From: Escherichia coli
GTDB lineage: Bacteria > Pseudomonadota > Gammaproteobacteria > Enterobacterales > Enterobacteriaceae
DNA length: 64,000 nucleotides
Assembly (NCBI RefSeq): GCF_024700885.2
Contig: NZ_CP117016.1
Strand: one strand, 5' to 3'
How positions within the stretch are numbered: the stretch's first letter is position 1; each line of letters starts with the position of its first letter. Shown in pieces: positions 52,601 to 58,600 of the stretch. The position numbers were made by a program.

Positions 52601-55600
52601 TTATCTGATGTTTTCCCCGCAGGGAATGAATGCCGAGGGATACAGTTACCGAAATCGCTTTCAAAGTGGCGTAATACCCGGAATGTGGTCGCCAGGACGA
52701 CTTTTTGCACAATCCGGGCATTTTACTGAACTTGATAACGGGCATGACTTTTATGCACCACAAAGCTTTTTAGCGAAGGATGGTCGGCGTATTGTTATCG
52801 GCTGGATGGATATGTGGGAATCGCCAATGCCCTCAAAACGTGAAGGCTGGGCAGGCTGCATGACGCTGGCGCGCGAGCTATCAGAGAGCAATGGCAAACT
52901 TCTACAACGCCCGGTACACGAAGCTGAGTCGTTACGCCAGCAGCATCAATCTATCTCTCCCCGCACAATCAGCAATAAATATGTTTTGCAGGAAAACGCG
53001 CAAGCAGTTGAGATTCAGTTGCAGTGGGCGCTGAAGAACGGTGATGCCGAACATTACGGATTACAGCTCGGCACTGGAATGCGGCTGTATATTGATAACC
53101 AATCTGAGCGACTTGTTTTGTGGCGGTATTACCCACACGAGAATTTAGATGGCTACCGTAGTATTCCCCTCCCGCAGGGTGACATGCTCGCCCTAAGGAT
53201 ATTTATCGATACATCATCCGTGGAAGTATTTATTAACGACGGGGAGGCGGTGATGAGTAGCCGAATATATCCGCAGCCAGAAGAACGGGAACTGTCGCTC
53301 TATGCCTCCCACGGAGTGGCTGTGCTGCAACATGGAGCACTCTGGCAACTGGGTTAACATAATATCAGGTGGAACAACGGATCAACAGCGGGCAAGGGAT
53401 CCGCGTCACTCTTCCTCCTTCACGACCTTCAATAATATGCAATGCAGCTTCCCGCCCGATAATGTCATGTGGAAGCTGAATTGTGGTCAGCGGCGGTAAA
53501 AACAGATGCCCGACGCCAACCAGATTATCAAAGCCCATTACGGCGACATCCTGCGGGATACGTACCCCCTTCGCCAGGAGAACCTGATAAGCGACAAAGG
53601 CTGCGCGATCGTTACCACATATCAGAACATCAAAATCTGGTTTGCCAGATTTGAAGTGGTCATTGAGTAAACTTGCGAGATCGGTGTAGTGATCATCACC
53701 TGTTGCCATGTGAAATTGTTTCACCTCAGCCAGATCTCGTCCAGCATCACGCCAGGCCTGCTCAAATCCCTGCCGACGATACCCTGTTGCCAACGCACTT
53801 TCCGGTAGCCAGAAGCATAACGGTTGACGATAGCCCGCCGCGAGCAAATGCTGTGTTGATTCATATTGTGCAGTGTAATCATCAGGGATATAACTGGGTA
53901 ACGCTGGGTCATCCGCCACACAGTTCGCCAATACAATATTTTCACCATACAGAGACTCAGGCAGCGTGATATGTCGCAGCCCCATTGTAGTATAGATAAT
54001 GCCATCCGGACGGTGGGCAAGCAGCTGACGTGCCGCGCGGGCAGCGTCATCTTCAGAAAAAATATTGATTAAAAAACTATTCCAGCCGAACTCGCTGGCG
54101 GTTTGCTCAATGGCAAGCAGAATATCAACAGAGAAAGGAGTGGTAGCAGTGTCCTGCGCCAGCACGGCGAGAGTCGACGGCTTACGTCCTTGAGCGCGCA
54201 TCTTACGGGCGGAAAGATCAGGAACATAATTCAGGGTCTGGATTGCCTGCAATACGCGGTCACGCGTTGCAGGACGCACAGATTCTGCATTATGCATCAC
54301 CCGGGAGACTGTCATCATCGACACTCCCGCCAGGCGTGCGACATCCTTTAATGAAGCCATACCCAAGCCGTTTGCCGTAAAACGGGCACTGTAGCAGAAA
54401 CAGACGTCACTGGCGAGATCCAACGATATTCTCAACGCCCTATCACCCGACACGGCAATACAATAAAAAATAACAATAATTCCCGGACAATTGTGCCCAA
54501 TTCCGCCTCTGTTCTCGCCAACGAGTAACCATATAGGCAAGTAGGTAAAACATGCCAACTGGCATCGCCAACCTGGAGAAGAAAATATAAATATGGATCA
54601 TTGTGCTGCCGCTGTATCCCGACATCAGCCCGGAAATTATTGCGATTGCTATCGGTTCAGGTGCGATTGGCTGCACGATCGTTACGGACTCGCTTTTCTG
54701 GCTGGTGAAGCAATATTGCGGCGCTACGCTCAATGAAACATTTAAATACTATACGACAGCGACATTTATCGCTTCAGTCGTCGCTCTGGCGGGCACATTC
54801 CTGCTGTCATTTATCATCTAAGCGCAAAGAGACGTACTATGGAAAACGCTAAAATGAACTCGCTCATCGCCCAGTATCCGTTGGTAAAGGATCTGGTTGC
54901 TCTTAAAGAAACCACCTGGTTTAATCCTGGCACGACCTCATTGGCTGAAGGTTTACCTTATGTTGGCCTGACCGAACAGGATGTTCAGGACGCCCATGCG
55001 CGCTTATCCCGTTTTGCACCCTATCTGGCAAAAGCATTTCCTGAAACTGCTGCCACTGGGGGAATTATTGAATCAGAACTGGTTGCCATTCCGGCTATGC
55101 AAAAACGGCTGGAAAAGGAATATCAACAACCGATCAGCAGGCAACTGTTACTGAAAAAAGATAGCCATTTGCCCATTTCCGGCTCCATAAAAGCACGCGG
55201 CGGGATTTATGAAGTCCTGGCACATGCAGAAAAACTGGCTCTGGAAGCGGGGTTGCTGACGCCTGAAGATGACTACAGCAAACTGCTGTCTCCGGAGTTT
55301 AAACAGTTCTTTAGCCAATACAGCATTGCTGTGGGCTCAACCGGAAATCTGGGGTTATCAATCGGCATTATGAGCGCCCGCATTGGCTTTAAGGTGACAG
55401 TACATATGTCTGCTGATGCCCGAGCATGGAAAAAAGCGAAACTGCGCAGCCATGGCGTTACGGTCGTGGAATATGAGCAAGATTATGGTGTTGCAGTCGA
55501 GGAAGGACGTAAAGCAGCGCAGTCTGACCCGAACTGTTTCTTTATTGATGACGAGAATTCCCGCACGTTGTTCCTTGGGTATTCCGTCGCAGGCCAGCGT

Positions 55601-58600
55601 CTTAAAGCGCAATTTGCCGAGCAAGGTCGTATTGTCGATGCTGATAACCCTCTGTTTGTCTATCTGCCGTGTGGTGTTGGCGGTGGTCCTGGTGGCGTCG
55701 CATTCGGGCTTAAACTGGCATTTGGCGATCATGTTCACTGCTTTTTTGCCGAACCAACGCACTCCCCTTGTATGCTGTTAGGCGTCCATACAGGATTACA
55801 CGATCAGATTTCTGTTCAGGATATTGGTATCGACAACCTTACCGCAGCGGATGGCCTTGCAGTTGGTCGCGCATCAGGCTTTGTCGGGCGGGCAATGGAG
55901 CGTCTACTAGATGGCTTCTATACCCTTAGCGATCAAACCATGTATGACATGCTTGGCTGGCTGGCGCAGGAAGAAGGTATTCGTCTTGAACCTTCGGCAC
56001 TGGCGGGTATGGCCGGGCCTCAGCGCGTGTGCGCATCAGTAAGTTACCAACAGATGCACGGTTTCAGCGCAGAACAACTGCGTAATGCCACTCATCTGGT
56101 GTGGGCGACGGGAGGTGGAATGGTGCCGGAAGAAGAGATGGAGCAATATCTGGCAAAAGGCCGCTAATTAATTTTCAATGCAGCATCGCCATCCTTTCCC
56201 TGGGTGAGCGATGCTGCCGATGGCGCAGGCTTAAGATTCTACCGTCTTACCTGCTATAGCTCTCTCTTTTTACCATCACCCAACACCTTTCGCTGTAAAC
56301 GGCGGTTTCGCAAACCAAACCAATACCGTAAGTAAGATAAAAGCAATAGCCGCCATACGGAAAATCTCATTTGCAGAAATTGAAAGTGATTGCTGAGTTA
56401 TTTCATTATTAATTTCATTAAGAACCCCTGAAAGCGAACCATAGTATTTATCCATAATTTGTGACGATGAATTAAACACGGGGTTAAATTGATCGATGGT
56501 TGCTGTCAACTGACTATGGTGTAACGATTCGCGTCGTCCCCACAGCGTCATTGTCAACGACGTACCAACTGATCCTGACAAGGTACGAAAAAAATTACTC
56601 ATACTCGAGGCATTAGCAAATTTATTATCTGGCAAACCTGAAAACGAAATCGTTGTTAAGGGTAAAAAGAAACAGGCGACGGCGAATCCCTGAAAAAACT
56701 GTGGCAAAATGATGCCTGTAAAATCAATCGTTGGCATAAATGTCACAGAACGCCAGTAATAGCAAACCGCATACATCAAAAAACTAAATGTCACTAACAA
56801 CCGCATGTCTATTTTGTTGCCATAACGTCCTATCAAAGGTGAAATTAATAGTGGCATGATGCCGATGGGCGCATAAGCAAGTCCGGCCCATATCGCATTA
56901 TACCCCATCGTTTCCTGGAGTAACTGCGGCATAAGGACGATCGCCCCAGAGTAAAATAAATATGCGCATGTGATACTCACAATACCAATGGTGAAATTAC
57001 GGGACTTAAATAAACTGAGATCAAGAATCGGATTCTCTGAGGTCGACTCCCAAATGACTAAAGAAATCAGAGAAATAACTGACACTACTGTTAGTATTAT
57101 TATTGTACTCGAGTTGAACCAATCCAGATCGCGCCCTTTATCAAGCATTATCTGCAAGCCACCAACACCGAGCACTAACAGGGTCAGTCCTGGTAGATTC
57201 ATTTTGACCGGTGAAGTCTCAGTTTCTCTTCCTTTAAGTAAGGTTAAGCATAATGTCAGGACGATAATCCCCATTGGGACATTGATTAAAAATATCCAAC
57301 CCCAGCTAAAGTTATCGCAAATGTAGCCACCCAATATCGGCCCACATATCGGAGCGATAATTACGGTCATTGACCATAATGCCAGAGCAAATGTTCTTTT
57401 TTCTGGCGGATAATTCCTTAATAATAAACTCTGTGACAGTGGAATTAACGGCCCCGCCATTAATCCCTGAACGACTCTAAAAAATATCAGCACATCAAGA
57501 TTGGTCGATAAACTACACATTAAGGAAGACAGCGAAAAAAAAGTGACTGAAAGTAAAAATAACCTTAATTCGCCTATTCTTTGTGCCAGCCTGCCGGTAA
57601 CAGGGATCGCAATGGCATTTGCTACGCCAAACGAAGTGATAACCCAGGTGCCTTCGTCTGTTGATGCTCCCAGAAAGCCAGATATTGTCGGTATTGCGAC
57701 GTTAGAAATAGTGGAATCCAACATTTGCATAAACGTCGCTAATGACAATGCAATAGTAACGCACCATAACGTCCCACCGGTTAATGGTGCCGGAGTTGAT
57801 TTAGTGATTGCCATTAAAGTTGTCCATTATGCGAAATAATGTTGCTAATTTCTTTTTCTATCGGACTGGTATCGATAACTAAAGCCTTACTGGTATAAGC
57901 AGGCATGGACGTCACGGTTGAAGCCAGCTCAGGCATCTCGGCAATGTCTTCGTTCTTCGTATCAATAGTTGCTGTCATCGATAAACCAATACGTAAGGGA
58001 TGTTCCATGAGTTCTTTTGGATCAAGAGAAACTTCAACCGGTACACGCTGAACGATTTTGATCCAGTTCCCTGTCGCATTTTGTGCAGGTAATAAGGAGA
58101 ACGCATTGCCGGTTCCCATATTGATCCCTGTCACCCGACCATGAAACACAACATTTTCACCATAAAGATCGCTGATAATATTGACCGATTGACCAATCCG
58201 CACATCCGTGAGTTGTGTTTCTTTAAAGTTGGCATTAACCCACATTTGACGTGCCGGTACGACAGCCATTAACGATTGTCCGGGACTCACTGTTTCGCCG
58301 ACCTGAACGCTTCTCTGGGCAATATAGCCGGTAACAGGACTCTTAATATCCGTACGTTTAAGCGCTAACCAGGCTTCTTTGGTTGCATCCGCCGCTTCAA
58401 CGACTTGTGGCTGACGGTTTAATGGTGTGTTCATTACTAAAGCTTTATTCGCTTTATAAGCCTGGATAGCGGCATTCAATGCCGCTTTGCTACTTATTAA
58501 CGTATCTTTGGTATGCTCCAGCGTTTCTTTTGAAATAACCCCCTGCTTCGCTAAAGGTACACGACGGTTATAATCTTCTAAAGATTGTTGATACTGAATA

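Follow-up and report, generated by a model that had tools for sequence, protein, structure and literature searches.

Sucrose genes in place of dsdC and most of dsdX next to an intact dsdA in the argW-dsdA island of Escherichia coli

Gene content of the argW-dsdA interval

We analysed a window of 64,000 nt of E. coli DNA (NZ_CP117016.1 of assembly GCF_024700885.2). In this window, the interval from argW to dsdA is occupied by cscB, cscK, cscA and cscR, as seen from NCBIfam matches for all four genes and from the annotation of a near-identical record. The same annotation places argW, a tRNA-Arg gene on the plus strand (48959-49033), at the left end, where it anchors the variable argW-dsdA island; it has been described as a recombination hotspot for this island (PMC4366372; PMC11251922). 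Beside argW lies a plus-strand DUF4942 fragment of 50 aa (49243-49395; Pfam PF13708, E = 8e-6, profile positions 18-62 of 190; also annotated), which is a leftover of an earlier integrated element. Two intact genes follow on the minus strand, namely cscB (49475-50722; 415 aa; TIGR00882, 594 bits; also annotated) for a sucrose:H+ symporter, an oligosaccharide transporter of the MFS type, and cscK (50794-51708; 304 aa; NF006957, 506 bits at a cutoff of 450) for a fructokinase. The gene for sucrose(-6-phosphate) hydrolase or invertase, cscA, is likewise intact and lies on the plus strand (51924-53357; TIGR01322, 477 bits; PGAP CDS, L001 8925-10358), so that it points towards dsdA with the antisense cscR in between. 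The latter (53365-54360, minus strand; PGAP CDS, L001 10366-11361) encodes the LacI-family csc repressor of 331 aa according to its LacI-family matches and is divergent from the dsdX remnant and dsdA; its stop codon and that of cscA are 7 bp apart. CscR is reported to repress cscBKA (PMC7486766).

Between the start of cscR and the dsdX remnant there is a spacer of 242 bp (54361-54602) in which nothing is homologous to the dsd DNA of K-12; the homology begins at 54604. A first-pass annotation of this DNA had assigned positions 54361 to 56167 to an orphan dsdA with a truncated dsdX. Both genes do lie within this span, but 54361 is the first base past the cscR start codon and the spacer belongs to the csc side. 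The remnant (54603-54821, plus strand) consists of 72 codons and a stop, which correspond to residues 374-445 of the 445 residues of DsdX (the same positions of the DsdX profile NF007395 are matched) with 98.6% identity to K-12. Thus, only the 3' end of dsdX remains, as had been claimed, although the earlier figure of about 76 codons was slightly high. The first kept codon is GTG, where K-12 has ATG, and in a near-identical genome PGAP annotates the remnant as a pseudogene with a missing N-terminus. A full-length DsdX permease (445 aa) together with the dsdX promoter is absent from the window. Next comes dsdA (54839-56167, plus strand), a full-length gene for a D-serine ammonia-lyase of 442 aa, which is identified by TIGR02035, the K-12 match and PDB 3SS7. 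The conserved right flank, common to the window and K-12, is formed by emrY (56276-57814, minus strand; profile, annotation and K-12 comparison).

All ten sampled csc+ loci have one and the same junction, GGATCATT|GTGCTGCCG. The spacer, which presumably carries the minus-strand promoter of cscR, is also kept in all ten, yet indels of 12 and 13 bp are tolerated in it. For the donor context of the spacer we ran a distant blastn search against a plasmid collection, in which the spacer itself matched nothing outside E. coli; the search returned E. coli records that resemble misfiled chromosomes and weak cscR-like LacI genes on plasmids of Rahnella, Proteus, Kosakonia and Klebsiella. A minus-strand ORF of 52 aa that starts at the junction (ATG at 54601, stop at 54443) was treated as spurious, because it has no Pfam match and because one locus, L011, has a 13-bp deletion within it (columns 194-206 of the spacer alignment).

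Absence of dsdC and frequency of the arrangement

A tblastn search of the whole 64 kb window with K-12 DsdC gave a best E-value of 0.84, in agreement with the earlier statement that dsdC is missing from the locus. Blastn with the K-12 dsdC-dsdX-dsdA region resulted in a single block starting at 54604, with the dsdC-dsdX intergenic region unmatched; therefore, the dsdC-dsdX promoter/operator is missing from the window as well. The human blood isolate elppa4 of E. coli is nearly identical to the window (7 SNPs in about 63 kb). DsdC, the LysR-type activator, is absent from the window, from the plasmid records in our collection (0 places for dsdC) and, at megablast sensitivity, from the elppa4 chromosome and from all 26 chromosomes whose csc junction region is 100% identical.

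We then counted how often the arrangement occurs among 5426 complete E. coli genomes. The junction between cscR and the dsdX remnant, scored at a coverage of 80% or more of a junction query of 601 bp, is present in 2658 of them, and dsdC in 2749. Since the union of both groups comprises 5380 genomes, junction and dsdC are nearly mutually exclusive. The replacement of dsdCX by csc is therefore common and found in about half of the complete E. coli genomes.

Integrity of dsdA and selection

The description of dsdA as intact was confirmed. The protein matches the TIGR02035 (NF002823) equivalog with 806.6 bits (cutoff 368.25) over profile positions 1-431 of 431, aligns to PDB 3SS7 with 985 bits and is 98.6% identical to K-12 DsdA across residues 1-442. 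The PLP-lysine motif SGSIKARGG (residues 114-122, with K118) is intact and aligns to PDB 3SS7. There are six substitutions compared to K-12; the allele of the window is WP_000426453.1.

Among the ten sampled csc+ genomes all have a full-length dsdA ORF of 1329 bp, and none has a pseudogene. The dN/dS of orphan dsdA in csc+ genomes is 0.060, as compared to 0.039 in dsdCXA+ genomes; this comparison is based on a small sample (10 csc+ loci) and is blurred by recombination, because the groups have two DsdA protein alleles in common, one of which is that of K-12 (WP_000426427.1). These values suggest that orphan dsdA is under strong purifying selection, with no sign of decay, and relaxed selection on it, which we considered as well, is not supported by them. 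In a published survey, dsdA was kept by >98% of 1591 strains (PMC4366372).

Promoters and expression of dsdA

Scanning positions 53300-56400 for the sigma-70 consensus, we found no match of at least 9/12, in a crude scan that weak promoters or those of other sigma factors can escape. In the spacer, too, neither strand has a match of at least 9/12, and the best one on the plus strand reaches 8/12. A relaxed scan upstream of dsdA returned matches of 8/12 or weaker, with nothing at the published position, which is that of a weak dsdA promoter element placed 115 bp upstream of the ATG, inside the retained part of dsdX (PMC7486766). The sole terminator-like site on the plus strand between cscA and dsdA is at 54787-54806 and lies in retained dsdX sequence, that is, in sequence from the dsdXA operon.

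Published data on expression come from EHEC, in which dsdA is silent or low and is not induced by D-serine. In TUV93-0, the gene was called 'silent', a reporter with the native upstream region gave low fluorescence, D-serine was toxic, and RNA-seq of the wild type shows low dsdA (PMC7486766). The gene was activated only by deletions that gave read-through from cscAp or z3622p (O'Boyle 2020; PMC7486766). The hypothesis of a low constitutive DsdA level was tested in 2026, and a dsdA knockout in EHEC raised the basal activity of the recA promoter (PMC13012123). Because of this knockout phenotype and the strong purifying selection, expression of dsdA is probably not zero.

The first-pass annotation had proposed that dsdA may be uninduced or constitutive and low, which agrees with the TUV93-0 experiments on the same junction architecture (PMC7486766) and would, by analogy, apply here. 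It had further held that dsdA would need a promoter in the csc junction or read-through. The weak element described in the EHEC work lies in retained dsdX sequence and not in the junction (PMC7486766). In summary, the earlier interpretation is supported, but the allele is already known, with good descriptions in the literature (Jahreis 2002; Moritz & Welch 2006; Connolly 2015).

Comparison with known systems

The window shares with EHEC O157:H7 EDL933/TUV93-0 (z3622-cscBKAR-dsdA) the gene order, the loss of dsdC and of the 5' part of dsdX, the spacer between cscR and the dsdX remnant, and an intact dsdA. In EHEC, an 8-bp repeat CCGGATAA has been reported 122 bp beyond the 5' end of cscR (PMC7486766), and five of the csc+ loci that we sampled have it at exactly the corresponding place in the spacer, which ties the published EHEC experiments to the csc-dsdX'-dsdA architecture. 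On the other hand, the spacer of the window differs from that of EHEC by SNPs, with CCGGACAA in place of CCGGATAA, its DsdA allele is a different one (G101R, L142P), and its nearest genome is that of a human blood isolate and not of an EHEC strain. EHEC and EPEC strains with the csc-for-dsdCX allele are sucrose-positive and D-serine-sensitive, do not use D-serine and have an uninducible dsdA (PMC4366372, PMC7486766).

In EC3132 and E. coli W the csc regulon likewise lies by argW and adjoins dsdA (Jahreis et al. 2002; Archer et al. 2011, as cited in PMC4366372 and PMC7486766). As far as these secondary descriptions go, we found no difference between that regulon (cscB-cscK, cscA, cscR) and the window. 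The window and the dsdCXA locus of K-12 and CFT073 have orthologous copies of dsdA and of the last 72 dsdX codons (97% DNA and 98.6% protein identity to K-12), and the emrYK-evgAS right flank of K-12 is the same. The window, however, lacks dsdC, the divergent dsdC-dsdX promoter/operator and dsdX codons 1-373, and has csc instead; in K-12, the CPS-53 prophage additionally separates argW from dsdC. In NMEC/K1 strains that carry dsdCXA twice, such as CE10, the variable argW-dsd island is the same, but a second copy was not found in the nearest genomes of the window.

Discussion

The locus very probably represents the standard form of the argW-dsdA island in which csc has replaced dsdCX (the csc-for-dsdCX allele), with a dsdA that is uninducible and weakly constitutive. 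What we show directly is which genes the window holds and where exactly the junction lies, that dsdC is missing from it and from its nearest genomes, how frequent the arrangement is, and that dsdA is intact and under purifying selection. An ancestral recombination would have exchanged dsdC, the dsdC-dsdX regulatory region and codons 1-373 of dsdX for cscB-cscK-cscA-cscR, leaving codons 374-445 of dsdX and an intact dsdA behind. As the DsdC activator, the operator and the dsdX promoter, which is the native promoter of dsdA, are all missing, dsdA should not be inducible by D-serine. Its transcription would be weak and constitutive and would start at a weak element in the dsdX remnant or stem from residual read-through.

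A different picture would emerge if a second complete dsdCXA lay elsewhere in the genome, as in the K1/NMEC strain CE10; the strain would then be D-serine-proficient and the orphan copy irrelevant. Two-copy strains are known (Moritz & Welch 2006, as cited in PMC7486766), junction and dsdC occur together in at least about 27 genomes, and some csc+ genomes have two places, for instance H58 and H63 with a chimeric query (the csc region joined to K-12 dsdC and the 5' part of dsdX, at megablast sensitivity) and H10 with an 8 kb locus query that includes dsdA. However, the chimeric query found one place on the elppa4 chromosome, with no second copy of dsdC or dsdX, and one place in each of the 26 chromosomes with an identical junction region; the 8 kb query, and with it dsdA, has a single place in elppa4, and no plasmid record of the collection matches dsdC. 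Since elppa4 and every identical-junction chromosome show one place, we reject the second copy, which almost certainly does not exist, and the refuting condition named in the earlier reading, a full dsdCXA copy elsewhere, does not hold in these genomes. It is also very improbable that orphan dsdA is a dead gene and future pseudogene that is intact only for lack of time, with G101R and L142P as the first signs of decay. In favour of this reading, these two substitutions are private to the window among 19 sampled alleles, the Salmonella DsdA of known structure also has G101, which is thus a conserved residue, and EHEC dsdA has been termed 'silent' or 'nonfunctional' (PMC7486766). Residue 142, however, is variable (T in Salmonella), and the ten full-length genes, the dN/dS values, the two alleles found in both groups and the wide retention among the 1591 strains all speak against decay. 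Furthermore, the EHEC allele is catalytically competent when transcribed (PMC7486766).

Alternatively, dsdA might have been rewired rather than silenced: the sucrose-inducible cscAp would read through the antisense cscR and the dsdX remnant and yield useful levels of DsdA once sucrose relieves the repression by CscR, or, in a variant, a promoter at the junction would provide substantial constitutive expression. The orientation of cscA, its close spacing to cscR, the single terminator-like site on the way to dsdA and the purifying selection are compatible with this. In EHEC, moreover, deletion of cscR leads to D-serine tolerance, and cscR in trans reverses it via the chromosomal cscAp (PMC7486766), so that cscAp can drive dsdA. 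We nevertheless regard rewiring as improbable, because a gfp fusion with the intact wild-type region from cscAp to dsdA reached 63-134 RFU, as compared to 2001 RFU for the deletion allele (PMC7486766), wild-type EHEC has low dsdA in RNA-seq, and read-through needs a passage of ~1 kb against convergent cscR transcription; we found no sucrose-induction experiment in the cited literature. A broader proposition, which we consider unlikely, is that orphan dsdA has been kept in about half of the E. coli genomes because even without DsdC it is expressed and beneficial. The means may be sucrose-coupled read-through from cscAp or a low constitutive housekeeping role, in which DsdA may remove endogenous or trace D-serine and lower basal SOS stress, as the EHEC knockout hints. 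If this were true, the csc replacement would be a regulatory rewiring of D-serine detoxification and not a simple loss.

Under the csc-for-dsdCX replacement with a weak, uninducible dsdA, D-serine uptake would persist through CycA, and the strain should be sucrose-positive, unable to grow on D-serine and D-serine-sensitive in minimal medium. The gene would then be a functional reserve that could be reactivated by deletion of cscR if this moves cscAp or another upstream promoter close to it. That dsdA is poorly expressed and not inducible, that D-serine is toxic and that the gene can be reactivated is taken from the EHEC experiments, and we infer that the strain studied here would behave in the same way. 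In gut and LEE-positive strains sucrose use has been gained and D-serine tolerance lost, whereas uropathogenic and meningitis strains keep dsdCXA, which makes the exchange of dsdCX for csc an established case of niche specialisation in E. coli. The window adds only a predicted phenotype, sucrose-positive and D-serine-sensitive, and about half of the species is expected to show it anyway. The lineage from which it comes includes the blood isolates elppa4 and elppa5, and the published D-serine sensitivity data are those of EHEC and EPEC.

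Organisation of the locus

The sucrose genes lie between the tRNA gene argW (48959-49033) and dsdA, with cscB (49475-50722), cscK (50794-51708) and cscR (53365-54360) on the minus strand and cscA (51924-53357) on the plus strand. A 242-bp spacer (54361-54602) separates cscR from a 219-bp dsdX remnant (54603-54821, plus strand), which is followed by full-length dsdA (54839-56167, plus strand) and, on the right flank, by emrY, emrK, evgA and evgS. Between argW and cscB there is a DUF4942 fragment of 50 aa (49243-49395). It covers only positions 18-62 of the 190 in the profile, its annotated length is 153-240 bp across strains, and it looks like the scar of an earlier element integrated at the argW hotspot.

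The dsdX remnant covers residues 374-445 of the 445 in DsdX; its first codon is GTG, with ATG at the K-12 equivalent, and homology to K-12 starts abruptly at 54604. The first-pass annotation had correctly seen that only the 3' end of dsdX is left, and its count of about 76 codons has to be changed to 72. Its claim that dsdC is absent from the locus holds for the whole 64 kb window, where K-12 DsdC has no match (best E = 0.84). In K-12 the DsdC-dependent dsdX promoter lies between dsdC and dsdX, and this intergenic stretch too has no match in the window.

Over about 63 kb the window and the chromosome of E. coli elppa4, isolated from human blood in Taiwan, differ at only seven single bases (18592, 19768, 24540, 36356, 40986, 41719 and 60078), which makes the source a close kin of elppa4 or a second assembly of it, not the elppa4 record as such. 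The first-pass annotation had proposed a search for a second dsdCXA copy, and none was found in elppa4 or in the 26 chromosomes with a csc junction region 100% identical to that of the window. The 8 kb locus including dsdA finds one place in elppa4, and a chimeric query (csc region, K-12 dsdC and 5' dsdX) finds one place there and one in each of the 26 chromosomes. Together with the lack of a match for dsdC among the plasmid records of the collection, this gives the lineage a single, orphan dsdA at megablast sensitivity.

Integrity of dsdA

The product of dsdA matches TIGR02035, the equivalog for D-serine ammonia-lyase, over its full length (806.6 bits, cutoff 368) and shares 98.6% identity with K-12 DsdA across its 442 residues. 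It aligns without gaps with the solved E. coli enzyme 3SS7 and retains the PLP-lysine motif SGSIKARGG, including K118. The gene is thus intact, as had been claimed. The allele (WP_000426453.1) carries G101R and L142P, both private among 19 sampled alleles; the solved Salmonella DsdA also has G101, and at position 142, a variable one, it has T.

The full 1329-bp ORF is present in all ten fetched csc+ loci. For dsdA, a Nei-Gojobori dN/dS of 0.060 among csc+ genomes compares with 0.039 among nine dsdCXA+ genomes, in a small sample whose divergence may largely be older than the arrival of csc or result from recombination across backgrounds. Two DsdA protein alleles, including that of K-12, are common to both groups. 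Intact ORFs, low dN/dS and shared alleles argue against decay of the orphan gene.

Frequency and origin of the allele

Of 5426 complete E. coli genomes, 2658 contain a 601-bp query spanning the cscR-dsdX'-dsdA junction, counted at a coverage of at least 80% (2648 for the 8 kb locus query), and 2749 contain dsdC with its intergenic region. Since the union of csc or dsdCX carriers is 5380, the two states are close to mutually exclusive, with both in at least about 27 genomes. At about 49% of complete genomes, the locus is about as ordinary as E. coli loci get.

In ten csc+ loci picked across the identity range the junction, GGATCATT joined to GTGCTGCCG, is the same base for base, and the spacer is conserved except for SNPs and two indels. 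This fits one ancestral replacement event that later spread via recombination. Both indels are deletions, of 12 bp in strain 184/2aE and of 13 bp in SCU-204 (sampled csc+ loci L008 and L011). A search of the plasmid collection gave no recognisable origin of the spacer outside E. coli. A minus-strand ORF of 52 aa (54443-54601, MIHIYIFFSRLAMPVG...) opens with an ATG exactly at the junction of csc and dsdX and has no family match in Pfam, and the deletion in L011 falls within it; it is probably spurious, though it could be left over from a gene of the donor.

Expression of the orphan gene

The allele is already known, and the literature describes exactly this one. In prototypic O157:H7 the sucrose locus replaces dsdC and part of dsdX at the argW hotspot (Connolly et al. 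2015, PMC4366372, citing Jahreis 2002 and Moritz & Welch 2006). Such strains do not grow on D-serine and are rescued by dsdA in trans, and dsdA is still present in >98% of 1591 strains (PMC4366372). In EHEC TUV93-0 the gene was described as "silent" and previously nonfunctional, and a gfp fusion with the native dsdA upstream region gave only 63-134 RFU (O'Boyle et al. 2020, PMC7486766). Spontaneous deletions raise its transcription: loss of cscR (LCV2) by 33-fold through read-through from the cscA promoter, and loss of the whole csc locus (LCV10B) by bringing dsdA under the z3622 promoter; both confer D-serine tolerance and catabolism (PMC7486766).

An 8-bp repeat, CCGGATAA, which in EHEC was reported 122 bp past the 5' end of cscR (PMC7486766), is found at exactly that spacer position in five sampled loci, and therefore the EHEC experiments apply to the present architecture. 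In EHEC the dsdA-activating 5.6 kb deletion was mediated by a direct repeat of which this 8-mer forms one arm (PMC7486766). Because the window has CCGGACAA in its place, this lineage may lack that route to reactivation.

Judging from the sequence and from what is established about the dsdCXA regulon, the absence of DsdC, its operator and the dsdX promoter leaves dsdA unable to respond to D-serine. Any residual transcription must start at a weak internal element or arise by read-through. A sigma-70 scan of both strands of 53300-56400 gave no match of 9/12 or better, and upstream of dsdA the plus-strand matches reach 8/12 at most. In the EHEC study a dsdA promoter element was assigned to a site 115 bp ahead of the ATG (PMC7486766), a position inside the retained dsdX fragment. 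Read-through from cscA is physically possible, since the only plus-strand terminator-like site between cscA and dsdA (54787-54806) belongs to the part of dsdX that was kept from the dsdXA operon. On the other hand, it would have to pass through cscR, about 1 kb that is transcribed convergently, and the published reporter signal from the intact arrangement is weak (PMC7486766). Some expression does exist, since a dsdA knockout in EHEC raises basal recA promoter activity; it does not relieve D-serine repression of the T3SS (PMC13012123).

A low, uninduced dsdA that can be reactivated by deletion, as published, is thus very probably the right explanation, and we infer that it would extend to the window strain; the first-pass reading of uninduced and low expression is supported by these experiments on the same allele. 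That the orphan gene is kept through useful DsdC-independent expression, either sucrose-coupled or in a housekeeping role, is the only reading with some novelty left, and we consider it unlikely.

Other features of the window

An IS3-family IS1397 transposase with a programmed frameshift (30239-31587), annotated at the matching position in elppa4, sits between smrB and a yfc-type chaperone-usher fimbrial operon (31660-38107). Between fadL and mlaA (45452-46720) there is a 351-aa hypothetical protein without significant Pfam match, and after it a 183-bp fragment annotated as a pseudogene that lacks its N-terminus.
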